Of a DNA stretch of 64,000 nucleotides, positions 10,881 through 48,776 are shown one piece after another. This DNA is from Mobula hypostoma. Lineage: Eukaryota. Within the stretch, counting starts at the first letter, position 1. Each line of letters begins with the position of its first letter. Position numbers and translations under genes: made by a program. The stretch spans positions 32,924,001 to 32,988,000 of the forward strand of contig NC_086097.1 of the NCBI RefSeq assembly GCF_963921235.1, read 5' to 3'. Under the pieces are notes generated by a model. That model ran no database searches. It was not told the DNA's origin and worked only from the letters and a program-made list of their open reading frames with translations.

Positions 10881-10968
10881 GTTGATGGAAGATGAATGAT
10901 TCAGCACTGATTAGGGAGCTGAAGGGCCTGTGTCTGTGCTGTCAGGTTCTATGACTCTGTTAGTTATC

Positions 10969-21165: not shown

Positions 21166-21166
<1 letters not shown>

Positions 21167-21198
<32 letters not shown>
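21167..21198. repeat. (AC)16 microsatellite
   Basis: Directly visible. Confidence 0.95.
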
Positions 21199-21202
<4 letters not shown>

Positions 21203-23212: not shown

Positions 23213-24689
23213 TAAGCACTCTTAATGGTAGTATAATAGTGGTCTTGTGTGTTGGCTCCTCTGGCTCCACACGTGATATGTTGGTGATAATTATTTAGGG
23301 ACTTTTTTAACCTGGCTGGTTAAAATCCCCCAGAAGATGGGGAAGGCACCAGAGTATGCTGTTTCATGCCTGTTAATCATGTCACTCATTTTGTCAGAGC
23401 CTATTTGACATGGGCCTGAGGTGGAATGTACACCGTGACCAAATTGATGTTGTCTACGTGGACTTCAGCAAGGCATTTGACAAGTGTCTGCATTGGAGGT
23501 TGGTCAAAAAGGTTCAGTTGCATGGCATTTAAGATGAGGTAGTAAACTGGATTAAACATTAGCTTCGTGGGTGAAGCCAGAGGGTGGTAGTAGAAGGTTG
23601 CTTCTCTGACTGGAGGCCTGTGACTAGTGGAATGTTGCAGGGATTGGTGGTGTTGTTTGTCATCTATATCAATGACCTAGGTGATAATGTAGTTAACTAA
23701 ATCAGCAAATTTGCGGTTGACACCAAGATTGGGGGTATAGTGAACAGTGAGAAAGACTAACAAAGCTTGCAGTGGGATCTGGACCAGTTGGAGAAATGGG
23801 CTGAGATGTGGTAGATGGAATTTAACGCCGACAATTGTGAGATGTTGCACTTTTGGGAGGACCGACCAGGGTAGGTCTTACATAATGAGTGGTTGGGCAC
23901 TAAAGAGTGTGATAGAACGAAAGGATCTGGGAATACAGGTCCATAATTCATTGAAAGTGGTGTCACACTTAGATTCAGTTGTAAAGAAAACTTCTGGCAC
24001 ATTGTCCTTCATAGATTAAAATATTGAGTGTAGGAGTCGGGACTGGAGGACCTAAATTATAAGGGGGGATTGAATAGGTTATAACTTTATTCCCTAGAAC
24101 GTAGAAGATTGAGGGGAAATTTGATGGAGGTATACAACATTATGAGGAGTATAGCTAGGGTAAATGCAAGTAGGCTTTATCCACTGGGGTTGGGTGAGAC
24201 TACAACTAGAGGTCATGGGTTAAAGGTGAAATGTTCAAGGGGAACATGAAGGGAAACTACTTCACTGAGGGTGGTGAGAGTGTGGAACAGGCTGCCAGTG
24301 CAAGTGGTGGAAATGATTTTGATTCGAACATTTAAGAAAAGTTTGGAAAGCCACATAGCTGGGAGGGGTATGGAGGGTTATGGTCTGGGTGCAGGTCAAT
24401 GGGACTAGCCAGTTTAAATGGTTTGACACAGACTAGGTAGGCCAAAGGGCCTATTTCTGTGCTGTAGTTTTCTATGACTCTATGAACAAATGTTGTTCTG
24501 TTATTTTCCAGTTCGTGTAACTTGGATGAATCTTTGGCATAAATCACAGTATAAGGGAAGTCTGTGAGACAATTTAATCCGCCCTTGTAATCTACCGTGC
24601 ATAATAGACATTTTTATGTCTCACCCATCAGTGCACCATTTTAAGAGGACTATCTTAACAATGCAGTTGTGGAGGAGTTTATTTGTCAC

Positions 24690-25490
24690 ATAAGACCAAA
24701 AGATGTAGGAGCAGAATTAGACCATTTGGCCCATTGAGTCTGCTTTGCCATTTCTTTATGGCTGATCCATTTTTCCTCTGAGCTCCAATCTGCTGCCTTC
24801 TCCCCATATCCTTTCATGTCCTGACCAATCAAGAATCTATTAACTTCCGCCTTAAATATATATTTAAGACTTGGCCTCCACAGCAGCCTGTGGCAACGAA
24901 TTCCACAGATTCACCACTCTCTGGCTAAAGAAATTCCTACTGATCTCTGTTCTAAAAGGACACCGCTCTATTCTGAGGCTGTGTCCTTTGGTCTTAGACG
25001 CTCCTACCATAGGAAACATCCTCTCCACGTCTACTCTACCAAGGCCTTCGTAATGACTTTTTTGTTGCTTTCTGTTGGTACTGAAAAATTTACTAATCCT
25101 TTAACTTCCCACTAATTTTTACTCTATTAAATGTCCTCACTTTGGCTTTTATGTTGGCTTTGATTTTCCTTTTTAGCCACGGTTGTGTCATCTTGCCTTT
25201 AGGATATATCTTCCTCTTTGGGATGTATATATCCTGTGCCTTCTGAATTACTTCCAGAAATTCCAGCCGTTGCTGTTCTGCTGTTATCCCTGCCAGTGTT
25301 GTGTTCCAGTCAATTTTGGCCAACTCCTCTCTCATGCCTCCGGAATTCCCTTTACTCCTCTGTAATACTGATACATCTGACTTTAGATTCTCCTTCTCAA
25401 AATTCAGGCTGATTTCATTCATGGTACAATCACTTGTCTTTTAGAGTTCTTTTACCTTATGCTCTCTAATCAATTCTGGTTCATTGTAAA
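24690..25490 (-). mobile_element. CR1 LINE fragments (3' tail joined to a more 5' ORF2 piece)
   Basis: Tail TAAGACC..TAGGAGCAGAATTAG; RNFFSQRVVNLWNSLP; MREELAKIDW..QPWL. Confidence 0.8.
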
Positions 25491-25519
25491 ACATTGTGCA
25501 CAGTGTGCAACAAAGAAAC

Positions 25520-25800
25520 CCCGTGCATACAGTGAAATGCATCATTTTGCATCAATGACCAACACAGTCTAAGGATTGTGCTGGGTGCTGGCCGCAAGTG
25601 TCACCATACTTCGGGCACCAACCTAGCATGCCTGCAACACACCAACCCTAACCTGTATCTCTCTGGGTTGCGGGAGGAAGCTAGAGCACCTGGAGGAAAA
25701 CCATGTGGTTATGGGGAAACCGTACAAACTCCTTACAGGCAATGGCAGGAATCGAACCCCCATTGATTTGGTGGTGCAGTAAAGTGATTGCACTAACTTG
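25520..25800 (-). mobile_element. tRNA-derived V-SINE (HE1-like)
   Basis: V-domain GGAGGAAGCTAGAGCACCTGGAGGAAAACCATG..GTACAAACTCC; B-box GGTTCGATTCC on the minus strand near 25748-25760. Confidence 0.75.
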
Positions 25801-25988
25801 GGTATTAGAAAAATGCAGTAATATGTAAGATTTTTTTTACGATGTTCACCTCAGTACGATGTGAAATAAGTCACAGAAAGAACATTGAAACAGCCTTAAT
25901 TTTTTTTCTAAGTTTACTTAATTTTAACAACTATTGAGGAAGTTAATAAGTTTCAAGATTCCTTCAAAAATCTAACATAACCTTTACC

Positions 25989-28058
25989 CCGCAAACGCGA
26001 GGAAATCTGCAAATGCTGGAATGTCAAGCAACGCACATAAAAGTTGCTGGTGAACGCAGCAGGCCAGGCAGCATCTTTAGAAAGAGGTACAGTCGACGTT
26101 TCGGGCTGAGACCCTTCGTCAGGACTACTGAAAGAAGAGCTAGTAAGAGATTTGAAAGTGGGGGGGGGAGGGGGAGATCCGAATTGATAGGAGAAGACGG
26201 GAGGGGGAGGGATGGAGCCAAGAGCTGGACAGTTGATTGGCAAAAGGGATATGAGAGGATCATGGGACAGGAGGCTTAGGGAGAAAGAAAAGGGGGAGGG
26301 GGGAAAGCCCAGAGGATGGGCAAGGGGTAAAGTGAGAGGGACCTAACCAGTGGGACCAGACCTAACCAGTTCCCCTCTACCACCACTCTGCTCCGTCTAG
26401 TGGAATTAGTCCTTACTCTTAATAATTTCTCCTTTGGCTCCTCCCACTTCCTCCAAACTAAAGGTGGAGCCATGGGCACCCGTATGGGTCCCAGCTATGC
26501 CTGCCTTTTTGTTGGCTTTGTGGAACAATCTATGTTCTGTACCTATTCTGGTATTTGTCCCTCACTTTTCCTTCGCTACATCGACAACTGCATTGGCGCT
26601 GCTTCCTGCATGCATGCTGAGCTCATTGACTTCAGTAACTTTGCCTCCAACTTTCACCCTGCCCTGAAGTTTACCTGGTCCATTTCCGACACCTCCCTCC
26701 CCTTTCTAGATCTTTCTGTCTCTATCTCTGGAGACAGCTTATTTACTGATGTCTACTATAAGCCTACTGACTCTCACAGCTATCTGGACTATTCCTCTTC
26801 TCACCTTCTCTTGCAAAACTGCCATCCCCTTCTCGCAATTTCTCCGTCTCTGCCCCACCTGCTCTCAGGATGAGGCTTTTCATTCCAGGACGAGGGAGAT
26901 GTCTTCCTTTTTTAAAGAAAGGGGCTTCCTTTCCTCCACCATCAACTCTGCTCTCAAACGCATCTCCCCCATTTCACGCACATCTGCTCTCACTCCATCC
27001 TCCCACCACCCCACTAGGAATTGGGTTCCCCTTGTCCTCACCTACCACCCCACCAGCCTCCGGGTCCAACATATAGTTCTCCGTAACTTCCGCCACCTCC
27101 AACAGGATCCCACCACTAAGCACATCTTTCCCTCACCTCCAACAGGATCCCACCACTAAGCACATCTTTCCCTCCCCTCCCTCTCTACTTTCCGCAGGGA
27201 TCGCTCCCGATGCGACTCCCTTGTCCATTTGTCCCCCCCATCCCTCCGCACTGGCACTTATCCTTGTAAGCGGAACAAGTGCTACACATGGCCTTACACT
27301 TCCTCCCTCACTACCATTCAGGGCCCCAGACAGTCCTTCCAGGTGAGGTGACACTTCACCTGTGAGTCGGCTGGGGTGATATACTGCGTCCGGTGCTCCC
27401 GATGCGGCCTTCTATATATTGGTGAGACTCGACGCAGATTGGGAGATTGTTTCGCTGAACACCTATGCTCTGTCCGCCAGAGAAAGCAGGATCTCCCAGT
27501 GGCCACACATTTTAATTCTACGTCCCATTCCCATTCTGATATGTCTATCCATGGCCTCCTCTACTGTAAGGATGAAGCCACACTCGGGTTGGAGGAACAA
27601 CACCTTATATTCCGTCTGGGTAGCCTCCAATCTGATGGCATGAACATTGACTTCTCAAATTTCTGCTAATGCCCCACCTCCCCCTCGTACACCATCTGTT
27701 ATTTATTTATTTATATACACACATTCTTTTTCTCTCTCTCCTTTTTCTCCCTTTGTCCCTCTCACTATACCCCTTGCCCATCCTCTGGGCTCTCCCCCCC
27801 CTTTTCTTTCTCCCTGGGCCTCCTGTCCCTCTCATATCCCTTTTGCCAATCAACTGTCCAGCTCTTGGCTGCATCCCTCCTCCTCCTGTCTTGTCCTATC
27901 ATTTCGGATCTCCCCCGCACCCCCCAACTTTCAAATCTCTTACTAGCTCTTCTTTCAGTTAGTTCTGACAAAGAGTCTCGGCCTGAAACATCGACTGTTC
28001 CTCTTTTTAGAGATGTTGCCTGGCCTGCTGCGTTCACCAGCAACTTTTATGTGTGTTG
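25989..28058 (+). mobile_element. Penelope-like element: inverted 5' terminal repeat, RT/GIY-YIG ORF remnant and 3' terminal repeat, with a 13-bp TSD
   Basis: CATAACCTTTACC at 25976-25988 and 28059-28071; RT QTKGGAMGTRMGPSYACLF..LRYIDN..LPFLD; GIY-YIG IYCVRCSRCGLLYIGETRRRLG..EH; ~26028-26342 is inverted relative to ~27750-28058. Confidence 0.93.
26091..26126 (-). ncRNA. Minimal type I hammerhead ribozyme motif (intact core)
   Basis: Minus strand AGUC-CUGACGA-A-GGGU-CUCA-GCCC-GAAAC-GUC-GACU: helix I AGUC/GACU, helix II GGGU/GCCC, core CUGAnGA...GAAA, GUC cleavage triplet and a palindromic ACGU helix III. Confidence 0.8.
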
Positions 28059-29624
28059 CATAACCTTTACCGTAGTAGTTTTCCATCCCCTGGTGGTACC
28101 AGCCTGTACCTTCTAATATCTTGCAAAGTATGGCCTAGGTACATAATTTAGAAACAGAGACAACATGTCTATAAGGAGGAAAGCATTCTTCACTAATAGC
28201 TAATCTCAAGGATGTGCATCTATGCAGGCTAACAAGGTGATGCCATTTGGTTTTACAAACTTCCATGTTGTGTTATACATGTTGGCATATACCAAGGATG
28301 AATGAAATTTAACTCTTTCCTTGCATTTAAATTATGCTAGCTAGAGGAGTCTGAACGATAAATTGCTGTTTCCATTGATATAGCTCTGGTCTGCTAAAGT
28401 GTGATTGTATTGGGTTTGCTGATTGCAAAGTTCTAAACTTGTATGAAGATCTTAAGCCCTATTTGGTATAGATAGCTATGGGTGCCCTCACTAAGGGGAA
28501 ATTATACTGTAACTACCCAATCTACGAAAAGGAGTTTACTTCCCTCTTTGTCCTCCACAGTGAGTTTAGCTGCCAATACCAACTATTTGAGCTTACTTCC
28601 ATGGAGATACTTCCAGCTAACAATGTAGTTTAAACACAGTTCATTTACTTTTAGTGATGCACATTAAAATCGAAACATTTTTAAGACACATTTAAAACTC
28701 ACATCAGATTTGTATCTTACAAAAGACTTCCAAATTACGAATCGTTTTTAAAACTTAAAGGATTTTCAAAACAGAGGTACAGTTCCTATGAGCTGAAAAG
28801 ACATACCCACAAACCAGAGACAAACCAATCATCTGTTGCAGAAATCGAAGGCAGAGGGATAGATTCTAGTTTACCTTATGTTTCTGTCATTCTTTTTGAT
28901 GTTCAAGGATCATTCCTAAAAAACCTGAACTGCTCTGTACATTTAAACTGTTTCTCTGCCGATCTAATATTTTTTCAGATACCTTTTAATACAAGCGGTC
29001 TCAATGCTTCTGGAGACAGAGGTCCCAAGTATTGACAATTAATGCTGTGAAGCTGACTCTTTTGACCTTCCAACTATTAACAGATTAGCAGTTTGATATG
29101 CTGAATGATAATATTCTTTTCTGCAAGTTTAATTTAACTAAATGACTTAACAAGCATGTTCTAGTTTGAAACAAACCAAATTAAAATATTCCACTACAAC
29201 TGTTGAGCAATAAGCTCAGAAGCTGTGGCACTGGTGAGTCTGTTCTGTAGATAGCATTTGTTTGCAATGCTGTCTTTAACTTCAAACTGTTCACTGCTTT
29301 CCATTTTTATCATGAACTGAAGACTGGCTCCCGTTTATGACAAGAAGTTAAAGAAAGAATATTAGTTGGAAATTCAACTTATTTGAAAACAACACCTTGA
29401 CCTTTAGTAGAGTCAGCTGATGTGTTTAGAAAGCTGAACTTGGCAAAAAAGAAAGGCCCCCAGGACAGTGAATATCCATCAAAGAAGTTTAAAGATCATG
29501 GAAAAAGGACAGATAATATTAAAAATAAAAATCCATTATGTGTTGAGGGCCTCCTGTATTGTTTCTAAGGAGTGGAATTGAAGCTGTTCCATGATACATT
29601 TCTAAAGCGACATTCATGTTGCAG

Positions 29625-29731
29625 GGAACACCCGTGTCTTCGGTGGGCAGGCGCCAATGGAACGGTACCTACCTTGGTTTTCTATGCAGATGGTATTGTG
29701 ACCGAAGATAGCAGCTTGCGCTTAATTGGAG
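29625..29731 (+). CDS. TTLL5: TTLL5 coding exon 2 (107 nt; EHPCLRWAGANGTVPTLVFYADGIVTEDSSLRLIG)
   Basis: ttgcag|G acceptor and G|GTATGT donor; aligns by eye to TTLL5 DHPCIMWTGG..PVLVFHADAILTKD..IRVIG; phases match the neighbouring exons. Confidence 0.92.
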
Positions 29732-30409
29732 GTATGTAAACCTTTCCGTGAGGACCATTTTTCAGTGCGGAATAGTGTGAGAGGCTGCTTTCATCCCGTT
29801 CCACCTGTCTTATAAACATTCTTCAGAGGAAGCTCTAGAGTTGTGCATTCACTTTTTGCTATGTTTTATTGACAATGTGAGTGTAGACTGTTTTTTAATC
29901 AGTCAAACCAATTAAACAATGTTACAGGTTGTGAGTCTTATTATTTCATAGAGACATCTTCCTATTGATTATAAATTTTAGAGTTAAATGGTGCATTTAC
30001 TTTGAAAATGATTCCTTTTTCTAAATTTATCTCAGAACAGAAATTTATCTATATACCGGGGTGGGCTGTTGTATGAAGCAATCCCAACTATTTCATTTAG
30101 TCCACTAGGATGCTCCTGAGCTTCCATTTGTCCATAATTTAAATTTCCATACCACTCCCACTCTTCCATGAGTGTCCACAACTTTCTATACCTGGCCAAC
30201 CAAGTTCAACATAAGCACAAGGGAAAGCACTCATCTTCCTTCTGGGGACGTTAAAGATAAAGATTAAAGATTAGCGTTATTTGTCATATGTGCATCGAAA
30301 TATCAAAATATAGAGTGAAATGTGTCATGTGTCATGTGAAATTGATTATTTCAGAATAACCAATAGACCTCTGGTTATTCAGAATCAGGTTTATTATCAC
30401 AGACAGTAA

Positions 30410-31110
30410 ATCTTTGAACCTATCCCTCTAAAACATTCCTATTCATGCACCCGTCCAAATGTTCTTTAAACATTGTAATTCTGTCTGACTCTGCTACTTC
30501 CCCTCACCCTGCCTCTGGTTTAGGCTTCCATCTCTGTGGAAGATATAAAACTGTGACTGTCTACCCTATATATCTCCCTCATGATGTTATAAATCTCTAT
30601 AAGGCTACTCCTCAGCTTCCTACACCAGTGAAAACAGACCCAGCCAATACATTCTCTCCTTGTAACTAAAGTTCTCTAATCTTGGCAACATCCTTGTGAG
30701 ACTTTTTTTTGCACCCTCTCTAGCTTAATCATAGCCATCCTGTAGCTGGGTGACCATAAATACACAGAGTGCTCTGTGTGCTTTAACCGATGTTCTATAC
30801 AATTGTAACATGATGCGCTAAATTTCGCTCTCAGTGTCATTGCTGATGAAGGCAAATGTGCCTTTGGCTGCCTTCACTGCCCTGTTTCCCTGTGTTACCA
30901 CTTTCAGGGAAATGTGTACCTGTATCGCAAGGTCACACTGATCAATAGTACCAAAACCCCACACCTTCACCCACCCCTCCCCCCAGGACCCTGCCATTCA
31001 CGGTGTCAGTTCTGCCCTGATTTAACTTCTCAAAATGCATAATTTTACACTTGTCTGAATTAAATTCCATCTGCTATTCCAATGCCACTCACCCAGATGA
31101 TCTAGTTCCT
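30410..31110 (-). mobile_element. Old CR1 fragment
   Basis: Degenerate RT C-terminal and 3' sequence (AATTCCATCTGC, ACCACTTTCAGGGA). Confidence 0.65.
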
Positions 31111-31236
31111 GTTGTAAAATATAAATCCATATAATACGTAGAGTGGGTAATGAGGGAGATTGATTTATGGATATTATAATTGCAATTATACCAGTACAGT
31201 CTATATCATGTCTTTTTTTTCCCTTCCTTAATGTAG

Positions 31237-31319
31237 AGCGCTATCACTTGGCATATAAGATTGTGCGCACTGAGAGTAGACTGGTGCGCAGCATTTTGAC
31301 AGCCCATGGCTTCCATGAG
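31237..31319 (+). CDS. TTLL5: TTLL5 coding exon 3 (83 nt; [28 protein letters not shown])
   Basis: Polypyrimidine tract plus tag| acceptor and GAG|GTAAGT donor; near-identical to the TTLL5 sequence [28 protein letters not shown]. Confidence 0.97.
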
Positions 31320-31659
31320 GTAAGTTCTGGGTTGGAAGAACAGTGTATGTTCAGTTGCCTGCTCCCCTCAGCACTCGGATGTTTCTTAACAGCCCTATTT
31401 GAAATTGTTCATTTGGCACCGGAACCTGAGACAACACGATAAAGATTGAACAACGTACAGGCCCCAGCTTGAGTTCACATATGCCAAGCTAAAGTTGAAT
31501 GGCATGTCCTGCGTTACCATGTTTCATGTGATTGTCCTTGTGTGCTCCAGGTGTGCATCATGGAGTTTTGAGGATGTGCTTCAAGCTCCCAAGTTCTCGT
31601 TTCATAAATTTAAAGATCATGAAAATATGAAGGCATAAAGGGCTAGTTAATCTATTGTG

Positions 31660-33045
31660 TCTATGCCAGCTTATTGCACCATGCCAGAGGAGTGGAAAAT
31701 TGCAAGTGTTACTCCACTCTTTAAGAAAGGAGGAAGGCAACAGAAAGGAAATTGTAGTCCAGTTAGCCTGACCTCAGCGGTTGTCAAGGAAGAGGTTATG
31801 TAGTTCTTGGTGACACAGGACAAGATAGGACAAAGTCAGCATAGTTTTCTTATGGGAAAATCTTGCTTGACAAACCTATTGGAATTTTTTGAGGAGATTA
31901 CAGGTAGGATAGATATAGGGGATGCAGTGGATGTTGTATATTTGGACTTTTAGAAGGCCTTTGACAAGGTGCCACACATGAGGCTGCTTACCAAGTGAAG
32001 AGCCCATAGTATTACAGGAAAGTTACTAACATGGTTCGAGTATCAGCTAATTGGTGGGAGACAGTGAGTGGGAATAAAACGGACCTTGTCTGGTTGACTG
32101 CCATTGACTAGTTCCGCAGGGGTCGGTATTGGAACCGCTTCTTTTTATGCTGTATATCAATGAGTTAGATGATGGAGTAGATGGCTTAGTTGCCAAGTTT
32201 GCAGATGATACGAAGATTGTTGGAGGAGCAGGTAGTGTTGAGGAAACAGGTAAGCTGCAGAAGGACTTGTACAGATTAGGAGAATGGGCAAAAAAGTGGC
32301 AAATGAAATACAATGTTGGAAAATGCATGGTTGTGCACTTTGGTAAATGAAATAAATGTGCAGACTAGTTTCTAAATGGGAAGAAAATCCAAAAATCTGA
32401 GATGCAACAGGACCTAGGAGTCCTTGTGCAGAGCACCTTAAAGATTAACTTGCATGTAGAGTCGTGGTAAGGAAGGCAAATGCAATGTTAGCATTCATTT
32501 CAAGGGATCTAGAATACAAGAGCAGGGATGTGATGCTAAGGCTCTATAAGACGCTGGTGAGAGCTCACCTTGAGTATTGTAAACAGTTCTGGGCTCATTT
32601 CAGTAAAAAGCTGGCATTGGAGTAGGCTCAGTGGAGGTTCACAAGGATGATTCTGGGAATGAAAGGGTTATCATACGAGTAACGTTTGATAGCTCTGGGT
32701 CTGTACTCACTGGAATACAGAAGGATGAGGGGGGATTTCATTGCAGCCTTTCAGATGTTGAAAGGCCTAGACAGAGTAGATGTGGAAAGGATGTTCCCCA
32801 TTGTAGGGGAGTCTAAGACAAGAGGGAACAGCCTCAAGGTAAAGGGCCATCCATTTAAAACAGAGATGCAGATAAATTTCTTTAGCCAGAGAGTAGTTCT
32901 TGATTGGACACAGCATCAAAGGTTATGGGGAGAAGGCCGGGGAGCTGGGCTGAGGAGGGGCAAAAAAAAGAGGATCAGCCATTTCTAGATGGCAGAAGAG
33001 ACTGGATAGGCCAAATGGCCTAATTCTACTCCTATGGTCGTATGG
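31660..33045 (+). mobile_element. CR1 LINE RT-to-tail fragment
   Basis: YLDF*KAFDKVPH, PQGSVL.PLLF, AKFADDTK, LGLYSLEYRRMRGD; tail CCTATGGTCGTATGG. Confidence 0.9.
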
Positions 33046-33769
33046 ATAGAGTCATGAAAGGGATGCAGGCTCTTGTGATGTGCTCAGCTGTATCCAAATC
33101 TCTCTGCAGTTTCTTACAGTCATATGATGAGCACTTAACATACCAATAGGAATTCAGTGGGTCAGACAGCATCTGTACAGGTATAGTCAAAAAACAAACA
33201 AGAGAAAATCTGCAAATGCTGGAAATCTGAGCAACACACAAAGAATGCTGGAGGAACTCAGCAGGCCAGGTAGCATCTATGGAAAAAAAAAAGTACAGTT
33301 GACGTTTCGGGCCAAAGGGTGTTGCTTGGAAAAGTCAAAAGTTTCAGTTTGCAATTTTATCTATGCCTTTGCGTCCACAGATGACCTGTTGAGTTTCTTC
33401 AGCAATTTTTCTGCGTTACTCTAGTTCCCAGTATCTACAGTTTCTTGAGAATTCCGTCATATTATGATCACTTGCCCCAAGGGTTCTTTTACCTTAAGCT
33501 TTTTAATTAAATCCATTCATTGCACAATACCTAATCCAGAGTTGCTGATCCCCTAGTGAGCTCAACCATGAGTTGCTCAAAAAAACCATCTCCTGGGCAT
33601 TCGGAAATCAATTTCTAGAAATTTATGTAGAGATATAGCACAGTAACAGACCCTTTAGACCCAACAAGCCCACGCCGCCTCAGTTACACATAAATGATGA
33701 ATTAACCTGCTAATCTGCAGGCATTGGAATGTGGGAGAAAACTGGAGTACCCAGAGGAAACTTGCACAG

Positions 33770-34335
33770 AAAGACAAGGCGGGGGGGGGGAACAGAGGAT
33801 GGGCAAGAGGTATATTCAGAGGGACAGAGGGAGAAAAAGGAGAGTGAGAGAAAGAATGTGTGCATAAAAATAAGTAACAGATGGGGTACGAGGGGGAGGT
33901 GGGGCCTTAGTGGAAGTTAGAGAAGTCGATGTTCATGCCATCAGGTTGGAGGCTACCCAGACGGAATATAAGTTGTTGTTCCTCCAACCTGAGTGTGGCT
34001 AACTCTCCTTTTTCTCCCTCTGTCCCTCTGAATATACCTCTTGCCCATCCTCTGGGTCCCCCCCACCCCTTGTCTTTCTTCCCAGACCTCCTGTCCCATG
34101 ATCCTCTTGTATCCCCTTTTGCCTATCACCTGTCCAGCTCTTGGCTCCATCCCTCCCCCTCCTGTCTTCTGCTATCATTTTGGATCTCCCCCTCCCCCTC
34201 CAACTTTCAAATCCCTTACTCACTCTTCCTTCAGTTAGTCCTGACGAAGGGTCTCGGCCTGAAACGTCGACTGCACCTCTTCCTACAGATGCTGCCTGGC
34301 CTGCTGCGTTCACCAGCAACTTTGATGTGTGTTCC
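33770..34335. mobile_element. Short Penelope remnant with inverted structure (minus ~33770-33998, plus ~34000-34335)
   Basis: GIY-YIG C-terminus on the minus strand, then a plus-strand terminal repeat nearly identical to 41295-41625. Confidence 0.85.
34237..34272 (+). ncRNA. Minimal type I hammerhead ribozyme motif, sense to TTLL5
   Basis: AGUC-CUGACGA-AGGGUCUCGGCCU-GAAAC-GUC-GACU. Confidence 0.78.
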
Positions 34336-35758
34336 CATCTAAATTTATTCCCTCTTCCCCTAAATTTATATGTTTTGTTTTTATTCACCTCTGATATTGT
34401 GGAAAAGTTTCCTGCAATCTATCCTGTCTATACCCCACATAATTTTATGTACCACAGTCATGTCCCCTCTTTCCCCCTCTTCACCTCCCCTGCTCCATCA
34501 CGGGCAGCAGCAGCAGCATAGTGAAGTTTCTTTGCATGTTCTCCAGCACTGACATGTTCTTCCTATAATGAAACATGAGAGACTGCAGATGTTGGGATAT
34601 AACAAAAACCAAATTGTTGGAGGAACTCAGCAGGTCAGGTAGTGTCTGGAGGGAAAGGCTAGTCAACGTTTCAAGTTGATATTAATGATTTGAATGAGGT
34701 ATGCGTAGTAAGTTGGCATTTAATGGAAAATTGTTGGTGATACAGGTCAATACTGATCATTTGGTAATGGAATTTAATCCTGGAAAGTACGAGGTGATAC
34801 ATTTTGACAGGGGTACTAATGAAGGTAGGACATGGAATATGGCATACTGAGGGAATATTGAGGAACAGAGGGACCTAGAAATGTAAATTCAAAAATCCTG
34901 GAAAAATGACAGCACAGGTGGATGAGGTGGTCAGGAAGGCTTTTGAGTTACATCATCATTAGCCACAGCATAGAATATAAGAGAATATTGAATAACTTTG
35001 TGATATATTAAGGGCACAATACTGTACAAAGTTTTGGTCACCATACTACAGGAAATACTGTACATGATAGTGGTGAGAGGGTGCAGAGGAAATTCCCCAG
35101 AAAGGTCAATAAAAACAAAACACTGGAAGCACTCAGCAGGTCAGGCTGTATCTGTGGGAAGAGAAATAGAGCTAAAGTTCTTGGCCAAAGGCTCTTTGCC
35201 AGAACTGGGAAGAAGTCAAAAGAAACTGGTTAAGAGGCAGGGATGGTGGGTTAGGGAGGATGTATCTAAAGTATCAATTGCCCTTCTCTTGTATTCAATG
35301 TCTCAGCCTACGAAGTCTAGCATTCTTAGTGTCGCTTTTACTTCGCTATTCTCCCATGTCTCTGCTTTCAGTGAACAATGCACTTTGCACTCTAAGGTCC
35401 CATTGCACCTCAGATCTTCTAAGGTCCCTGCCATTTACTCTCTTTGTCCTACCAAAATTTGGCTTCTCAAAGTTAATTACCTCACACTTGTCCAGATGAA
35501 ATTTGAACTGGCACCACCCTGCTCCATTTTCCAGCGGATGTATGTCTCACTATATCCTGAGCAACCTTATTTACTGTCGGCAATTCCACCGATTCATCAA
35601 TTCATCTGGTATACAGTTTTGGACTTCTAAAGGAAGTCTTGCCTTAGATTTGGTGCAACGTAGATTGATTAGACTGATTCCTGGGGTAAAATGGTCATAG
35701 TGTGTAAAGAGTTTGAGTAGGATGGCCATATTCTTCTTAGAATCCTAAAAATGGCATG

Positions 35759-36299
35759 TATTCAGTGGCCAATTTATTAGCTAAATCTGTACACCTTATT
35801 AATGCAAATATCTAATTAGTTAATCATGTGACGGCAATTCAATACATAAAAGAATGCAGACATGGTCAAGAGGTTCAGTTGTTGTTCAGACCAGATATTA
35901 GAATGGTGAAGAAAAGTGACCTAAGTGATCTTGACCATGGAATGATTATTGATGCCAGACAACGTGGTTTGAGTATCTTAGAAACTGCTGATCTCCTGGG
36001 ATTTTCATGTACAATAGCCTCTAGAGTTTACAGGTCTCTAGAGTTTATTGAGAATAGTGTGAAAAACAGACATCCAATTAACGGTAGTCCTGTGGGGGGG
36101 GGGGGGAAGCCTCGTTAAATGAGAGAGATCAGAAGAGAATGGCCAAACTAGTTCAAGCTAATTCAAATTACCAACAGTGGTGTGCAGAAGAGCAGCTCTG
36201 AATACACAAAATGACGAATCTTGAAGTGGATGGGCTACAGCAGCAGAAGACCATGAACATACACTCAATGGAGGTACCTAATAGAATGACCACTGAGTG
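35759..36299 (+). mobile_element. Internally deleted Tc1/mariner element with both TIRs
   Basis: TIRs TATTCAGTGGCCAATTTATTAG / CTAATAGAATGACCACTGAGTG|TA; transposase HTH remnant KKSDLSDLDHGMIIDARQRGLSILETADLLGFS..SRVYR. Confidence 0.85.
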
Positions 36300-37159
36300 T
36301 AGATTTAATTTCCTAACTGTTACCAGAACGACTTTGTGTTTCTAACGAAATGTGACATAGGGTAGTGCAGTGCAGGAATAGGCCTTTCAGTCAATGAGGC
36401 CAATTTATACAGCACATGAGAAAGGCATGCATGCCGTAAGCCACCTTTACACTATCCTATCTACTTATGGTGCCACATTCAGAGAGCTATGATCTTCTAT
36501 CCCAAAATCTCTCTATATCAGAGCTCTCAGTGGATCTGCCGTGTCCTGCATACTTTCCTCTTGTACTTAACCTCCCAAAATCCATCACCTCAGGCAACAG
36601 AAGGATATGGATTATGTACAGGCAGAAGTGGTTTAGTTTAATTTGTCATGTTTGCTGTGGGCATGCTGTTTTGTTCCATGTTGTATTTATTTGACCTCCA
36701 AAAGTTCACCATCTCATACTTGTCCAGATTAAATCCATCTGACATTTCTCTGCCTACGTTTCCAGCAGTTTAATATCCTGTTGCATCTTTAATAGCCTTC
36801 CCCAACTCTGCCAATTTTTATCTCATTTTGTAAACTTAGTAATCAGCTCAGCTATGCTTATTTCCGAATTACAAACATCTGAGTGCCACAAACTGATTGT
36901 TTGTGGAACACCACTGGTTACAGGCCTCCAGCTAGAATAATATCCCTCGACCACTAACTTCTGTCTTCTACGACCAAGCCAATTTTGAATTCAGTCTGCT
37001 AAGTCTCCACAAATCCTGTGTGCCACAATCTTTTAGGTCAGCTTACCAAGAGGGATCGTGTTGAAGATTTTACTAAAATTGATGTATGTAACATCCACTG
37101 CCATACCCTCATCAGTCATCTTTGTTACCTCTTCAATAAAAACTCAATCAGATTTGTAA

Positions 37160-38935
37160 GCAACACACACAAAATGCTGGAGGAACTCAGCAGGCCAGGG
37201 AGCATCTATGGAAAAAGAGTAAACAGTCAAATGTTTTGGGCCGAGACCCTTCATCAGGACTAGAGAAAAAAAGATGAGAAATCAGTGTAAGAAGGTGGGA
37301 GGAGTTGAGAAGAATTACAAGGTAGTAGGTGATAGATGAAATTGGGAGAGAGGGAGGGGTGAAGTAAAGAGCCGGGAAGTCAATTGGTAAAAGAGATAAA
37401 GGGTTGGAGAAGGGGAAATCTGGTAGAAGAGGACAGCAAGCCATGGAAGAAACGCAACTGGGAAGAACATGAAGGAGATGATTGGCAGGTAAGAAGATGA
37501 GGTGAGAGAGGGAAATGGGAATGGTGAAGGGGTGGTGGGGGCATTACTGGAAGTTTGAGAAATTGATGTTCATGCCATCAGATTGGAGGCTACCCAGATG
37601 TTATGTAATGGTGTTGCTCCTTCAACCCAAGTGTGGCCTCATCGAGGCAGTAGAGGAGGCCATGGACTGACATGTCGCAGTCGGAATGGGGAGTAGAATT
37701 GAAATGGGTGGCCACCAGGATTACCACTTTTTCTGGCGGATGGAGTTTAGGTGCTTGGCGAAGCGGTCTCCCAATCTACATTAGGTCTCACCCATATACA
37801 GGAGGCAACACTGGTTGTATCGCATGCAGTAGGTGACCCCAACAAACTCACAGGTAAAGTGTCGCCTCACCTGGAAGGACTATTTGGGGCCCTGAATGGT
37901 AGCAAGGGAGGAGGCGTAGTACTTCTGCTTGTAAGGATAAGTGCCAGGAGGGAGATCAGTGGAGAGGGATGAATGGGCAAGGGAGTCACATAGGGGGTGA
38001 TCCCTGCAGAAGGCAGAAAGTGGGCGAGAGGGAAAGGTGCTTGCTGGTGGGAAAAGTTACGGAGAATTCTGTGCCGGACATGGAGGCTGGTGGGGTGGTA
38101 GGTGAGGACAAGAGGAACCCTATCCTTGGTGGGGTGCCAGGAGGATGCAGTGAGGGCAGACGTGCACAAAATGTAAGAGATGCAGCTGAGGGCAGCATTA
38201 ATGGTGGAGGAAAGGAAATCTCTTTCTTTGAAGAAGGGGGATATCTCCTTAGTTCTGGAATGAAAAGCCTTCCCCTGAGAGCAGATGTGGCAGAGATGGA
38301 GTAATTGATAGAAAGGGATGGCATTTTTTTTTTTTTACAAGTAACAGGGTGGAAAGAAGTATAGGCCAGATATTGTGGGAATCAGTGGGTTTATAAAAAA
38401 TATCAGTAGATAAGCTCTCTCCAGAGATAGAGACAGAGAGATTGAGAAAATGGAGGGAGGTGTCAGAAATAGACCAGGCAAATATGAGGGCAGGGTGAAA
38501 GTTGGAGGCAAAGTTGATGGAGTCGATGAGTTCCACATGAGTGCAGGAAGCAGCACCAATGCAGTCGTTGATATAGCGTAGAAAAAGTTAAGGGAGTGAT
38601 ACCAGTATAGGCTTGGAACATAGACTGTTCCAATTGGCTGACAAAAAGGCAGGCATAGCTGGGACCCATGCGAGTGCCCATGGCTACACCTTTCATTTGA
38701 AGGAAGTGGGAGGAACAGAAGGAGAAATTTATTGAGAGTGAGGACCAGTTTCACCAAACAGAGGAGAGTGGTGGAGAAGGGGAACTGGTTGGGTTTGGTG
38801 TCCAGAAAGAAACTGAGAGCTTTGAGGCCTTCCTGATGGGGAATGGAAGCATACTGGGACATCCATAGTGAAAATAAGATGATCAGGGTCAGGGACTAAA
38901 ATTATTGAAAAGATCAAGAGCATGTGAAGTGTCAT
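37160..38935 (-). mobile_element. Older Penelope-like element (RT, GIY-YIG and terminal repeat)
   Basis: KGVAMGTRMGPSYACLF, FASNFHPAL..KPTDSH, RVPLVLTYHP; terminal repeat with a decayed hammerhead at ~37226-37261. Confidence 0.9.
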
Positions 38936-39069
38936 AGATTTGTAAGGTTGTTAGCTGTGGCTGAAGCATTTAGAACTCAATACATCTTTGGGTAAGGGAT
39001 TGTTTGCTTACATCTGAGTTGAGGAGCAGGACTGTGTGAATCTGGAATCATGAAATACTGTGAATGTTT

Positions 39070-39415
39070 TAGAACATAAAACATTACAGCACAATTCAGA
39101 GCACAATATTGTGCCGCCCTTTTAACTTTGAGATTAATCTAACCCTTTTCTCCCACATAGCCCTCCATTTTTTTTATCATCCATGTCCCTATCTAAGAGG
39201 TTCTTCATTGCCCCTAACGCGTCTGCCTCTACCACCTCTGGCAGCACATTCCACACACCCACCATTCTCTGTGTAATAAAAGCCAACCTCTGATATGCCC
39301 CTATACTTTTCTCCAATCATAAAATTTTCCCCCTTATGTTAGCTATTTCCACCCTAGGCAAAAATATCCACTCGATCTGTGGCTCTTATCATTTTGTACA
39401 CCTCTGTCAAGTCAA
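39070..39415 (-). mobile_element. CR1 3' end fragment
   Basis: TAGAACATAAAACATTACAGCAC tail; TQRMVGVWNVLP. Confidence 0.75.
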
Positions 39416-39601
39416 CAACCTCTATTTAGTTGTTAACTACGAGGGTGAAATTGTTGGATTCTTGTAACTGATAGAATTAGGATATGGGATTGGGGAAGAA
39501 AAGGGAATTGATGTCCATGACCAAGTATAATCTTACTAAGTGATGGAGAAGGCTTAAGGAGCTGTGTGATCTACTCCTGTTTCTTCTGCCTTATGTATCT
39601 G

Positions 39602-39890
39602 CAGTACTGTGCAGAAGGCTTAGGTACATGTAAACAAATTCTGTAAAACGAATATGCTTTCAAAAATAATGAATTGATGAGTTTCTAAACATCAAAATAT
39701 TACAAGAAAGAGCAGTAAACAGTAAAACACTAAATCAAATCAACGTTTGGTGTGACCACCCTTTGCCTTTTAAATGGCATCATTTCTCTTAGGTACATTG
39801 TTGTGCAGTTTTATAAGAAAATCTGCTGATAGGTTGTACCAAGCATCTTGGTGAACTTGCCATAATTCAGTAGACTTTTGCTGTCTTTCC
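39602..39890. mobile_element. Tc1-like terminal fragment just upstream of exon 40017
   Basis: Begins CAGTACTGTGCAGAAGGCTTAGG (Tc1 TIR-like), followed by TTTGGTGTGACCACCCTTTGCC; no second TIR found. Confidence 0.5.
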
Positions 39891-40016
39891 AGGTGGCTTA
39901 TAGTGGAAAAAGTTTACTCTGTATTTCAACATACTATTCTGTCCTGAGAGTTACCTGCATCCCTTCCCAGAAGTGAGAGGTGGTTCTAACCCTGGCATGT
40001 TTGTGTAACCTTACAG

Positions 40017-40123
40017 GTCCATCCCAACAGTAATGATTTCAATTTGATGTGGTCCGGTTCCCATTTGAAACCCTATCTATTCCGCTCACTGCTGGATTTT
40101 CAAAAAGTCAACCACTTTCCCAG
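40017..40123 (+). CDS. TTLL5: TTLL5 coding exon 4 (107 nt; [36 protein letters not shown])
   Basis: ttacag| acceptor and AG|GTACGT donor; contains the TTL-family QKVNHFP motif. Confidence 0.97.
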
Positions 40124-40624
40124 GTACGTATCTAAACCATCATATTTCTGCTTCATGAACCACTCTGATTCATTCCTGAGATTCAAGCAAAGGTTATCTT
40201 GCTGGGATGATGAGGAGACATTGTTTATCTATCACTAATGACGTTGGCTGTATATTAGAGGGACAGTGTCATGTCATATCTGTAGATCTGATCACATCAT
40301 GGTAAGTAGGGAGGGATAACAATGTGGAGAACAGCTGCTACAGGCAACAAAATCTGAACAGGCTTTTGAATAGACTTGATAAATAAATGCAATGTAGCTA
40401 AGTGTATGATGGTACGTTTTGTTTGGAATGAGGAGTTTGCATATTTCTTAGATAGTGGGATAGTACAATATTCAAGGAAGGACCTGCAAGTGCAGGTGCT
40501 AAGGCCAGCAACACATAAGCTGACACCTATAAAGGATTCCGTACCTTGATGAGAATTATCCCATGAGTTGACACCTACTGATGGGAGTTATCTGAGACAC
40601 CAGATATGTGTATATGTATATGTA

Positions 40625-41625
40625 TTCCTCACCTACCACCCCACCAGCCTCGGGGTCCAACATATTATTCTCCGTAACTTCCACCACCTCCAACGGGATC
40701 CCACCACTAAGCACATCTTTCCCTCCCCCCCCTCTCTGCATTCCACAGGGATCGCTCCCTACGCAACTCCCTTGTCCATTCGTCCCCCTCATCCCTCCCC
40801 ACTGATCTCCTTCCTGGCACTTATCCGTGTAAGCGGAACAAGTGCTACACATGCCCTTACACTTCCTCCCTTACCACCATTCAGGGCCCCAAACAGTCCT
40901 TCCAGGTGAGGCGACACTTCACCTGTGAGTCGACTGGGGTGATATACTGCGTCCGGTGCTCCCGATGTGGCCTTTTATATATTGGCGAGACCCGACGCAG
41001 AGTGGGAGACCGCTTTGCTGAACATCTACGCTCTGTCCGCCAGAGAAAGCAGGATCTCCCAGTGGCCACACATTTTAATTCCACATCCCATTCCCATTCT
41101 GACATGTCTATCCACGGCCTCCTCTACTGTAAAGATGAAGCCACACTCAGGTTGGAGGAACAACACCTTATATTCCGTCTGGGTAGCCTCCAACCTGATG
41201 GCATGAACACTGACTTCTCTAACTTCCGCTAATGCCCCACCTCCCCCTCGTACCCCATCTGTTACTCATTTTTATGCACACATTCTTTCTCTCACTCTCC
41301 TTTTTCTCCCTCTGTCCCTCTGAATATACCTCTTGCCCATTCTCTGGGTCCCCCCCCCCTTGTCTTTCTTCCCAGACCTCCTGTCCCATGATCCTCTCAT
41401 ATCCCTTTTGCCAATCACCTGTCCAGCTCTTGGCTCCATCCCTCCCCCTCCTGTCTTCTCCTATCATTTTGGATCTCCGCCTCCCCCTCCAACTTTCAAA
41501 TCCCTTACTCACTCTTCCTTCAGTTAGTCCTGACGAAGGATCTCGGCCTGAAACGTTGACTGCACCTCTTCCTAGAGATGCTGCCTGGCCTGCTGCGTTC
41601 ACCAGCAACTTTGATGTGTGTTGTT
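40625..41625 (+). mobile_element. Penelope-like 3' fragment (intact GIY-YIG domain plus terminal repeat)
   Basis: 108-aa ORF FTCESTGVIYCVRCSRCGLLYIGETRRRVGDRFAEH..PVATHFN..RLEEQHLIFRLGSLQPDGMN. Confidence 0.92.
41526..41561 (+). ncRNA. Minimal type I hammerhead ribozyme motif (GUU triplet), sense to TTLL5
   Basis: AGUC-CUGACGA-AGGAUCUCGGCCU-GAAAC-GUU-GACU; weakened helix II. Confidence 0.68.
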
Positions 41626-42329
41626 CTGATTTGTGAAAGTGCTGAGGCTGCAAAGGGTAACAATTAGTAACCAGGTTTATATGGATTTGGGAATGTATAT
41701 TCAACTCAGACATTAAAGGTTAAAGATTAGCTTAATTACATGTACATCGAAACATAAGTCAACAACCACCACATTCTGTGGGTATGCTGGAGGCAACTCA
41801 TCAGAATCAGATAGACAATTCATACAGCCCAAGATTGTGTTTCATTAGTATTGAGCCAATTACTTTGAAATCTTGGCTGAAATTAGACCTCTCAGAAATA
41901 AAATGCGGCTGTCATTTTTCTGTGGTTATTAAACCATAGTTTTTTTGGGATATTTGCACAGAAATCTCAAACCAGCATATAATTGGATTTGGAGAAGGCT
42001 TTAAATAGAAATGCAACACTGATGATATATTTGTTCTTCTGTATTTATTCTGTATATTGAATTTGCATCTAGTTACAGTTTTTTCTTTAAAAAAGTGGTG
42101 TGATTGGCTGAAATCTGGCGGGGGTTACCAAAGCTTCACTGTCTCTCTTTGAGATCTAGTCCAACATGCCATTTCCATTGAAGAGTAGCATATCACATTT
42201 TAGTTTCATTATGGAAAAGTTTATTAGCAATAATAATGACAGAGCAGACTCATTGGGCCGAGTGACCTAATATGCTCTTGTCATGGTCTAATACCATTAG
42301 AATTCCAGCACTTCAACCATAGTCAGAGA

Positions 42330-42640
42330 TAGAATCGTAGAGCACATATACAACCCCTTTGGCCCATTGCATTTGTCCTGACCTGAAACACCCATCTGCA
42401 ATAATCCCATTTTCTTCTTGCATCCCTAGAGATTCCACCTTTCCAAATTCCTCTTAATCCTCCTGCCACAAACCTACACCAAGGTATCCTTACAGTGGCC
42501 AACTAACCTACTAGCTCTCGTCTTTGGGATGTGGGAAGAAACTGAAGTACTTGGAGAAAACTTGTGCAGCCACAGGGAATAGTACATGCAAACTCCACAG
42601 AGAGCACTTGAGGTCAGGTCAACATCAAACCTTCTGTTAC
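42330..42640 (-). mobile_element. V-SINE with a CR1-like tail
   Basis: TTTGGGATGTGGGAAGAAACTGAAGTACTTGGAGAAAAC..CATGCAAACTCCACA. Confidence 0.65.
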
Positions 42641-42789
42641 TGTAGCTGTGAGAAAGCACTAGCTATTGTGGGGATTGTGCTGCTTTGCTCAGCTAAGTTC
42701 TATCAGTGGTAATCTTACTTTTAATTTTATACTTTGATAAATGTGCTTAAAAGTGTGCTGAAACTCTGATGATTATTTTCTCATTCCAG

Positions 42790-42920
42790 ATCCTATGAGT
42801 TGACCAGGAAGGATCGGCTGTATAAAAATATTCAACGCATGCAACAGACCCATGGTTTCAAACACTTCAACATTATACCTCAGGCCTTTATCCTCCCTTC
42901 TGAGTATCAGGAATTATCGA
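42790..42920 (+). CDS. TTLL5: TTLL5 coding exon 5 (131 nt; [43 protein letters not shown])
   Basis: ttccag| acceptor and A|GTAAGG donor; ELTRKDRL and P-x-x-F-x-LP motifs. Too short to appear in the ORF track. Confidence 0.97.
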
Positions 42921-43284
42921 GTAAGGGCATTTTATACTGTCACGCTTCAGTTTAGTCCAAGTGAGACTAGGTTGAGTGAATGGTGATTATTTTTATTTCA
43001 TTCCCACCTTAACAAACTGAGGATTTGAATTCCATTTGCACAATTTGGTTTCAGTAAAAGTGCCCACAAAGTAACATTTGACAGTGATAGGCTAGTCATC
43101 AGAATATACTGGAAATGGCCAGCAGCTCCAATAGTATTTGTGGAGAGAGAATCATAATCAACATTTCCAGCAGCTGAACTTTAATCAGAACTGGAAAAAG
43201 TTTGAAGTAAAATATGTTTTAAGTGGAAGAGGAGGGAGAAGGGGAACACCCGTTTGTAATAATGTGGAAACCTGGAGTAAAAAA

Positions 43285-44280: not shown

Positions 44281-45547
44281 AGAGGCAGAATGATATAAAT
44301 ACTGGCACTGTTGGCTAGGTGCTAAAGGCTAGTATATAATGTATGCTTGAGGGAGGCATTGACTCGTTTATCTCTTAACTCGCAAAAGCAAAAGAAAAAC
44401 CATCTAACTGAAAAGTTAATTCTGTTTCTCTCTTCATAGACACTGCCCAATCTCTTGAGTATTTTCAGCATTTTCTGACTTTTTTCAGATCGCCAACATC
44501 TGTAGTATTTTGCCTTTGTTATTGAAAACTGAATTGATTTACTAATGTTCTTCACAAAGGACACCTGCTTGGGGCTGAGCAACACACAACATGTATGGGG
44601 AAAAAGTACAGTCAACGTTTCTGACCGAAAACCTTCGGCAGGACTGGAGAAAAAAAGCTGAGGAGTAGATTTAAAAGGGGGGGAGGGGAGGCTGATCTGG
44701 AGATTACTCTGAATTACCTTTTGACTGCCTACGCAGATTCCACAGTTGTTGGCAACAATTGCTGAGGTTACACTGTGGTGGTTCCATGCTCTTGGTGACA
44801 GTGGCTAGAATGGTAGTACTGTAATATGTGTCATTATCAGCAAATGACTATTAGTCTGCTTCCTCAAAACATCCTGCTGAGTCCTGATGGAGGGTCTCCG
44901 CTCAAAATGTTGACTGTCCATTCCCCCACCCCCAAAGATACTCCTGACCCGCTAAGTCCCTCCAGCATTTTGTGTGTTGCCCAAGATTTCCAGTATTTGC
45001 TGAATCTCTTATGTAATGATATCCTGTTGTTATGTTTTTTTAAACTTTTCTCCAGAGAGCCATCTAATTGTCCTTTGATTCCTTTTAAGCATCTGATGGA
45101 ATGCACTCTTCATGTTCATCAGTTTTATTAACCTTGGATTATAAAATTGTCCTGATCCATTTAACTAACTGATAAAGTGATCTTACAGACTCTGAACAAA
45201 TAAAATGCCCTCAAATAATGCCCAAAGTGAAGCTAATTCCGGACATTTGGATAGATGGCACTGGTTATGTGGCAGGACTGTGACCCTAATCTCATCCCTT
45301 GGGATGGGGTCCTGGAGCTGTTCTAGTTCCTCAGCCATACTCAATGCCATACATTAGCCAAACCTAATCCTGTGCATCAGGGGACAGAGTGCTGTAGCTA
45401 TTCTAGTTCCTTGGGATTGGGTGGTCTCTGGGCCTCAGTTCTTGGTACACTTCACTCTGGATCCATTGTGAGGACTTGACTTCGACCCTGTCCCCAGACT
45501 TTGGGAACAGTTTTTCTCAAAAACCAGTTTTTATTTTTTTTCACAAG

Positions 45548-45630
45548 ATGCACATTCAAAGGATAAAGGACCATGGATTGTCAAGCCCGTGGCATCTTCC
45601 AGGGGTCGTGGTGTCTATCTTGTCAGCAGC
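45548..45630 (+). CDS. TTLL5: TTLL5 coding exon 6 (83 nt; NAHSKDKGPWIVKPVASSRGRGVYLVSS)
   Basis: Long T tract plus cacaag| acceptor and AGC|GTAAGT donor; ATP-grasp motif WIVKP-xxx-RGRG. Confidence 0.97.
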
Positions 45631-48706: not shown

Positions 48707-48776
48707 CCCAATCAAATTACAACAGATGAGAATATCCTAGTTTCACGTTACATCCGCTCCCCACTGCTGATAGATG
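48707..48776 (+). CDS. TTLL5: TTLL5 coding exon 7 (70 nt; PNQITTDENILVSRYIRSPLLID)
   Basis: tttcag| acceptor and G|GTAAGT donor; V-S-R-Y-I-x-x-P-L-L-I-D motif. Confidence 0.96.

Follow-up and report, generated by a model that had tools for sequence, protein, structure and literature searches.

Can hammerhead ribozyme motifs that a transposable element has left in the introns of a gene act on the transcript of that gene? A 64,000-nt stretch of the genome of the ray Mobula hypostoma (NCBI RefSeq assembly GCF_963921235.1, contig NC_086097.1, positions 32,924,001 to 32,988,000 of the forward strand; hereafter, the window) raises this question. It holds nine copies of a 36-nt hammerhead motif in or near the gene TTLL5, and a preliminary description of the stretch proposed that two sense copies, at 34237 and 41526, pair across the exon lying between them and cut the introns or affect splicing. 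Our analysis points elsewhere: the motifs are very probably decaying, inert passengers in the truncated tails of a Penelope-like element (PLE) in or near ray TTLL5. Five observations carry this reading: the 290 nt that separate stop codon and hammerhead in one insertion (E), inverted truncated arms, target-site duplications, private mutations, and splicing across 41526.

Hammerhead motifs and their carrier element

The three motifs with an intact core lie where the preliminary description had placed them (Table 1). A descriptor requiring CUGANGA, a 3-bp helix II, GAAA, NUH, and a 3-bp helix I finds exactly these three in the window, compared with a mean of 0.005 and a maximum of 1 in dinucleotide shuffles (n = 200), which rules out a chance motif. 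A looser pattern allowing one mismatch gave 7 matches against 1.76 expected, a count reached in 1 of 100 shuffles. Each of the three copies consists, in order, of a 4-nt helix I 5' strand, CUGACGA, a bulged A, a 4-bp helix II with a 4-nt loop, GAAA, CGU, nucleotide 17, and the helix I 3' strand that closes the motif. The core is in type I order (CUGANGA, GAAA, NUH) in these three of the nine copies and broken in the other six. Helix I pairs at all four positions in the three copies, whereas helix II pairs at four of four positions in the 26091 and 34237 copies (wobbles included) and at three of four in the 41526 copy. The bulged base between positions 9 and 10.1 is present in all three, and the ACGU palindrome, with no helix III loop, is found in five of the nine copies, these three among them.

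The 26091 copy combines an intact core and bulged A with a G10.1-C11.1 pair, the palindrome, and a GUC cleavage site (nucleotide 17 at 26095). The 34237 copy has a G10.1.U11.1 wobble and GUC (nucleotide 17 at 34268). For the 41526 copy, a single helix II change had been described; the A.C mismatch is indeed there (41540), but this copy also carries U11.1, as does the 34237 copy, and U17, which makes its cleavage site GUU (nucleotide 17 at 41557). The Rfam hammerhead families, put forward earlier as a check, came back empty: there was no match at gathering score across the window and none at E ≤ 10 over 25900-26300, which fits a motif without helix III.

Self-comparison shows that all nine motifs are tails of one repeat family, which covers 6,698 nt or 10.5% of the window (hand-set intervals). 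The earlier assignment of such motifs to PLE terminal repeats is borne out, as the hammerhead follows the stop codon of a GIY-YIG endonuclease in insertions A, B, D, and E; the copies at 44610 and 44880 (F) share the tail only. The open frame of E (40711-41232) encodes a CX4CXXC linker (CKRNKCYTC) followed by GIY-YIG and ends 290 nt before the hammerhead. PF01541 (GIY-YIG) barely passes its cut-off at 40711-41229 (E = 1.1e-4; 22.8 bits against 22.6), and the best 8 of 15 database matches of this frame are Mobula, Hypanus, Rhincodon, and Stegostoma proteins at 60-90% identity. GIY-YIG sequence is retained in four insertions, and the Neptune-type cysteine linker is intact in two. In insertion B, shark proteins P0006 and P0008 align along 26358-27663; the reverse transcriptase (RT) fragments 26331-26870 and 26710-27156 had no Pfam match at E ≤ 0.1 and contain what we take to be RT motifs. 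No copy in the window has an intact RT-endonuclease frame. The family likely belongs to the Neptune clade, judging from the linker and the vertebrate host, and Nematis shares the linker; sections of PMC8557442 give the cysteine linker as a mark of Neptune and Nematis PLEs.

The insertions are arranged as PLE insertions typically are, with 5' truncation, an inverted truncated arm, and a tail of 30-40 nt at one end (described in parts of PMC8557442). Inverted junctions are seen in A, B, and C. Together with the 13-nt target-site duplications, they indicate that the 3998 and 4614 motifs belong to one insertion and the 26091 and 27961 motifs to another; the duplications rule out independent insertions in both cases. 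Such duplications flank two of the four insertions checked (A and B), and none was found for C or E. The plus part of B is a 5'-truncated, frameshifted RT-linker-endonuclease sequence, the minus arm (26091) bears an extra tail extension, and the 27961 arm stops short. The inverted piece of C is the endonuclease end and has no hammerhead. The family is also abundant beyond the window: 11,192 to 78,216 contigs per run fell on 39900-43050 in four contig runs (X1, X2, X5, and X10), with depth concentrated on the element, and 87 to 95 contigs per run (X1, X2, and X5) continue past 41623 into similar tail.

Table 1. Hammerhead copies, PLE insertions, and TTLL5 exons in the window
Feature	Coordinates	Strand	Remarks
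Minimal type I hammerhead, fully consensus	26091-26126	-	antisense to TTLL5; inverted arm of insertion B
Minimal hammerhead, intact core	34237-34272	+	sense; intron 31320-40016; insertion C
Minimal hammerhead, intact core	41526-41561	+	sense; intron 40124-42789; insertion E
Dead copy	3998-4033	-	G8>A, helix I mismatch; arm of insertion A
Dead copy	4614-4649	+	U4 and G5 changed, palindrome lost; other arm of insertion A
Dead copy	27961-27996	+	G8>A, palindrome lost, helix II broken; direct arm of insertion B
Dead copy, more diverged subfamily	37226-37261	-	G12>A, one-base insertion; insertion D
Dead copy	44610-44645	-	A6>C, helix II broken; complementary to 41526 copy
Dead copy	44880-44915	+	A9>G, G12>A, palindrome lost
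PLE insertion A	3903-4711	- copy, inverted + tail	5'-truncated; endonuclease 3' half 4250-4489; junction near 4517
Insertion A 13-nt target-site duplication	3890-3902 and 4712-4724
PLE insertion B	25989-28058	-, then +	inverted tail to ~26342 (-), then 26343-28058 (+)
Insertion B 13-nt target-site duplication	25976-25988 and 28059-28071
PLE insertion C	33768-34333	-, then +	inverted piece 33768-34000 (-), tail 33999-34333 (+)
PLE insertion D	37157-38862	-	older subfamily, RT to tail; ~75% identical to B and E
PLE insertion E	40626-41623	+	5'-truncated; frame 40711-41232, pyrimidine-rich spacer, hammerhead, tail end 41623
Further truncated tails (at least four)	33225-33313, ~34590-34675, ~35100-35165, 52192-52260	-, -, -, +	cut inside or behind hammerhead
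TTLL5 coding exons	12933-12995, 29626-29730, 31237-31319, 40017-40123, 42790-42920, ~45548-45630, 48707-48775, 56534-56620	+
TTLL5 exon between sense copies	40017-40123	+	107 nt, AG/GT; residues ~85-120 of P0016

TTLL5 and the decay of the copies

By protein alignment, the host gene is ray TTLL5 on the plus strand, as had been proposed. The exon at 42790-42920 is 100% identical over 43 residues to Mobula birostris TTLL5 (P0016), and the next three matches are ray TTLL5 too. The matched span runs from 12933, where the ATG lies, to 56620 and covers residues 1-243 of P0016, with 97-100% identity for seven of the eight exons; the eighth alignment extends into the intron. The same alignment supports the earlier placement of exon 40017-40123 between the two sense copies. 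The PDB gave only weak TTLL6 matches (E = 0.72) and the ESM atlas the TTL family only, and Pfam had no match for two short exons (four of five Pfam queries were empty, RT fragments included). The first coding exon matches P0016 and not a Hypanus isoform with another N terminus (P0017).

All copies had been placed in TTLL5 introns, which holds for seven of them. Intron 12996-29625 contains the 26091 and 27961 copies, intron 31320-40016 those at 34237 and 37226, and intron 40124-42789 that at 41526, and the 44610 and 44880 copies lie in the intron after exon 42790-42920. For the remaining two, at 3998 and 4614, the first TTLL5 coding exon begins about 8 kb further downstream. There is no clear CpG island in 1-14000, so the TTLL5 promoter may be outside the window.

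The six decayed copies of the preliminary description were all recovered, with exact spans of 3998-4033 and 4614-4649 for the first two; in all six, one or more core positions are broken. Only one of the nine copies (26091) is fully consensus, and it is antisense. We scored changes against the majority of the eight ungapped copies, omitting that of insertion D for its one-base insertion. The 26091 copy has one change (in the loop), the 34237 copy one (C11.1>U), and the 41526 copy three (G10.3>A, C11.1>U, and C17>U); the remaining ungapped copies have four to seven each. At position 11.1, four of the eight aligned copies have G-C, three have G-U, and one is unpaired, and both sense copies with intact cores lack C11.1. 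The two changes of insertion E at 41540 and 41557 are private to it: in all four contig runs, most of the family reads G at the first position (97-99.7% of summed depth) and C at the second (84-97%).

We compared motif and flank in three pairs, the two arm pairs (3998-4649 and 26091-27996) and the C/E pair (34237/41526). Of the 108 hammerhead positions compared, 15 differ, whereas in the flanks it is 30 of 690 (Fisher p = 0.0004); the motif diverges about three times faster than its flanks. This excess is the opposite of local purifying selection. Within its 36 nt the motif has 5 CpGs, and CpG transitions account for 6 of the 15 differences. Covariation gives no help: among the eight window copies, which are few and too similar, 92% of cells are paired and none of eight base pairs has a two-sided change. 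A metagenome scan with free helices yielded no family member by BLAST among 120 of an estimated ~400 loci, one of which passed a loose stem filter without family similarity.

Between subfamilies, sequence similarity resumes at the start of helix I or close to it. D and the minus-strand F copy align to E from 41525-41526 onward, short-query alignments to insertion A also begin at 41526, and 183 contigs of run X10 have loose ends before 41526. This pattern points to selection on the motif while it was part of active elements, rather than in the host intron.

Predicted folding, splicing, and the likelihood of cleavage

The motifs are minimal type I hammerheads that a very abundant PLE family carries in its 3' terminal repeat. 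According to the literature, two neighboring copies in active tandem elements share ACGU as a 4-bp helix III and cut at GUC, probably with help from the protein of the element. Isolated intronic copies would rarely or never reach this double-hammerhead fold, because the G10.1-C11.1 pair is lost, the copies misfold locally, and antisense family copies outcompete the partner. They would then leave with the spliced introns, and if a slow cut did occur on rare occasions, tethering of the exons would probably make it tolerable.

Folding predictions are in line with this scheme. With 100-150 nt of native flank, the hammerhead helices have predicted probabilities of at most 0.008 in C and 0.000 in E, compared with 0.1-0.84 in the antisense 26091 copy. 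A C/E double hammerhead would have only 12 intermolecular pairs in three 4-bp helices, with a predicted energy of -2.2 kcal/mol in the usual register or -7.7 kcal/mol in an alternative one, against -14.7 kcal/mol for two perfect copies and -21.9 kcal/mol for the best pairing of the C and E 36-mers. Antisense family copies about 3 kb downstream offer far stronger predicted partners: C with D reaches -57.7 kcal/mol (33 pairs), the motif at 37226 lying in the same intron as that at 34237 and complementing it, and E with F reaches -52.4 kcal/mol (37 pairs). Random 36-mers from the intron gave a median of -13.6 kcal/mol and a minimum of -53.8 kcal/mol, the minimum probably overlapping copy D. Both G10.1.U11.1 and GUU lower hammerhead activity. 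Parts of PMC7151607 and the literature around it gave no usable number for either effect.

Splicing across the 41526 copy appears normal. The junction 40123-42790 (GT..AG, 2,666 nt skipped) is present in three of the four runs. In X1 its depth is 61.8, on a 1,073-nt contig with no mismatches that continues ~490 nt 5' of the exon; X2, from the same study, has a depth of 10.3; and X5, from another study and organism, has a depth of 15.9 on a 2,434-nt contig. No junction was found over 39900-43050 in run X10, whose contigs run through intron sequence. Spliced TTLL5 mRNA that includes exon 40017-40123 therefore exists in two studies.

Several points weigh against reading the motifs as inert. Core, helix I, and palindrome are intact in both sense copies, and the 36-mer of C without its flanks is predicted to form both helices with probabilities of 0.65-0.95. 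U11.1, which may reflect either CpG decay or a subfamily state, permits an alternative 3-bp helix II (A-U, G-C, G-C) that would move the mismatch of E into the loop. The energies are nearest-neighbor values (ViennaRNA) that leave out the non-canonical hammerhead core and any protein. CpG decay does not fully explain the excess divergence of the motif, as non-CpG differences alone number 9 of 82 in hammerheads and 27 of 672 in flanks (p = 0.011). The contigs of the four runs were placed on 39900-43050 at 85% likeness and cannot show RNA ends; their RNA status is a guess, none of the ten runs listed being recorded as RNA and all ten consisting of contigs. Spliced contigs show presence, not efficiency, so that rare skipping or cleavage is invisible to them, and the junction covers the intron of E (41526) and not that of C (34237).

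A rival reading is that the copies make occasional slow cuts, as protein-aided monomers or as dimers formed in trans with family transcripts, without consequence for TTLL5. Hammerhead cleavage in an Anolis PLE is protein-assisted, the ribozyme being inactive without the protein of the element and dispensable for insertion in vitro (sections of PMC11167929), and the runs guessed to be RNA contain family sequence in great abundance. Slow cleavage of this kind would be compatible with splicing, as hammerhead-cut introns are reported to be still spliced and a fast hepatitis delta virus ribozyme to block splicing (PMC2995048). Yet the window has no intact open reading frame to supply protein in cis, C and E are predicted to misfold in context, and no RNA-seq reads end at the cut site of the Anolis element (PMC11167929, in part). 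We regard such cuts as very unlikely.

A broader reading is that dispersed PLE hammerheads act on host pre-mRNA in vivo, as long-range or trans dimers or with the PLE protein, and cut it strongly enough for rays to purge or inactivate sense intronic copies. The faster decay of the motif and of the plus arms would then be the footprint of this process, and the pair at 34237 and 41526 would survive as a weak cutter of TTLL5 pre-mRNA. We consider this reading very unlikely. If dispersed copies did cut host pre-mRNA, this would be the first in vivo activity for metazoan minimal hammerheads, none being shown in the papers covered here, and a family this abundant would put genome-wide pressure on intron processing.

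The specific proposal of the preliminary description, that C and E pair across exon 40017-40123 and cut the introns or affect splicing, here read as cuts in both introns frequent enough to alter TTLL5 splicing or output, fares worse still. Its attraction lies in the intact cores, helix I stems, and palindromes, and in reports that PLE hammerheads work as dimers (PMC6765202; PMC4209133, in part). Timing is also favorable: the cut sites are 7,289 nt apart, or about 2 min at the mammalian rate of ~3.8 kb/min, and with splicing within 5-10 min (both figures quoted in PMC2995048) both copies are probably present together in the nascent RNA for a matter of minutes. There is also a precedent for splicing tuned by an intronic ribozyme, that of CPEB3 (PMC10919898, in part). 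However, the predicted C/E fold is far weaker than its competitors, both copies have lost C11.1 and E has two more private changes, and neither purifying selection nor covariation is seen. Even adjacent copies have low published activity, with no cleavage by a single minimal hammerhead and low activity of dimers and trimers (PMC4209133, in part). With private mutations, a weak predicted fold, no covariation, faster divergence, and an exon that is included and normally joined downstream in three of four runs, the dimer idea is unsupported, and we rate it highly improbable.

No more probable is the notion that sense copies able to cleave are harmful to host transcripts and disfavored by selection, leaving survivors enriched for inactivating changes. 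It could draw on the excess of hammerhead over flank differences, CpG and non-CpG alike, on the larger number of private changes in plus than in minus arms (5 against 2 in insertion A and 5 against 1 in B), and on the antisense orientation of the sole perfect copy. But the comparison is post hoc and spans three pairs, the motif is rich in CpGs, one change of the B plus arm is common to C and E, and the C/E pair alone has 2 of 36 hammerhead against 7 of 287 flank differences. Placement of insertion A within the TTLL5 transcription unit is unsupported, the antisense copies of D, F, and A are dead too, and orientations are even (five plus and four minus). Inert, decaying passengers remain our preferred account of the motifs.

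Inverted PLE pieces also flank exon 40017-40123. The piece at 33768-34000 (minus) would pair with 41139-41369 (plus) at 95% identity over 233 nt (-456 kcal/mol, predicted), and 37526-38108 (minus) would pair with 40626-41249 (plus) at 75% over 627 nt (part of it at a predicted -561 kcal/mol). Long double-stranded RNA formed by these pieces could promote adenosine-to-inosine editing, exon skipping, or back-splicing, and such an effect on the pre-mRNA is likelier than cleavage, although the exon is included in the spliced contigs.

Relation to known hammerheads and other features of the window

By every sequence feature that can be tested, the window motifs are members of the minimal hammerhead ribozyme class of metazoan PLEs, and they are an ordinary example of the PLE hammerheads described in 2014. 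With that class, as presented in parts of PMC4209133, they share type I topology, the CUGANGA/GAAA/NUH core, the bulge between 9 and 10.1, the lack of a helix III loop, the CGU palindrome, a U-rich 5' flank, and the place in a terminal repeat. As in that class, most copies are solo and truncated, and there are pairs on opposite strands separated by a few hundred bases. The 26091 copy fits the consensus of Fig. S3 in that paper at every position, in which G10.1-C11.1 occurs at >80%, whereas both sense copies deviate at 11.1; helix II in the window is at the short end (4 bp). Cartilaginous fish do not appear in the rows of that figure covered here, and the supplement PDF, searched as text, has no occurrence of shark, skate, Callorhinchus, or Leucoraja. 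A full-text literature search for hammerhead ribozyme, Penelope, and shark gave a single review, in which "shark" refers to a shape. The window thus adds a ray family to the known PLE minimal hammerheads, and nine copies in 64 kb indicate that such motifs land in introns often.

Among PLEs, the copies resemble endonuclease-containing (EN+) Neptune elements (PMC8557442, in part), which have a C-terminal GIY-YIG, a CX2-5CxxC linker, a terminal-repeat hammerhead, 5' truncation, an inverted 5'-truncated arm, and a tail extension at one end. The window copies differ in being all truncated and frameshifted. Poseidon PAc of Anolis (PMC11167929, in part) similarly has a minimal hammerhead upstream of a tail, the tail being present in a fraction of copies. 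It belongs to another PLE clade, however, and its open reading frame is intact and encodes the cleavage-assisting protein, whereas no window copy is intact.

Two other comparisons can be set aside. The ribozymes HH9 and HH10 and that of CPEB3 are single-copy, conserved, and competent as monomers. Like the sense copies, these domesticated ribozymes (amniote HH9/HH10, PMC6155905; CPEB3, with a half-life of 2-3 min, PMC10919898; both in part) lie in sense orientation in introns of protein-coding genes, but the window copies are high-copy, lack helix III, and are decaying. A domesticated host ribozyme is rejected on the lower conservation of the motif than of its flanks, the missing helix III stem, and the lack of an Rfam match. 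Non-LTR (long terminal repeat) retrozymes (bioRxiv 10.64898/2026.07.22.740005, in part) also have type I hammerheads derived from PLE terminal repeats and are reported there in the one chondrichthyan sampled. They are tandem head-to-tail units (51-972 bp) in which two or more complete hammerheads follow one another, whereas the window copies are dispersed or inverted and endonuclease-linked; same-strand copies lie kilobases apart in separate insertions, which excludes a retrozyme array.

Beside the hammerheads, the sense PLE copies contain open stretches bounded by AG...GT, at 40749-40905 and 27198-27342 (plus), which are possible cryptic exons. Database proteins named as Hypanus and Mobula host genes (P0003, P0004, and P0011) contain the PLE endonuclease, which suggests exonization or mis-annotation. 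Elsewhere in the window, open reading frames at 1380-1751, 5602-6051, 9146-9568, 14235-15535, 22480-23319, and 59155-59808 (all minus) and at 62698-63123 (plus) are presumably retroelement-derived; we take them to be Gypsy-type RNase H and CR1-, RTE/L2-, and L1-like frames. A tandem array of a 10-nt pyrimidine unit occupies 2241-2370.

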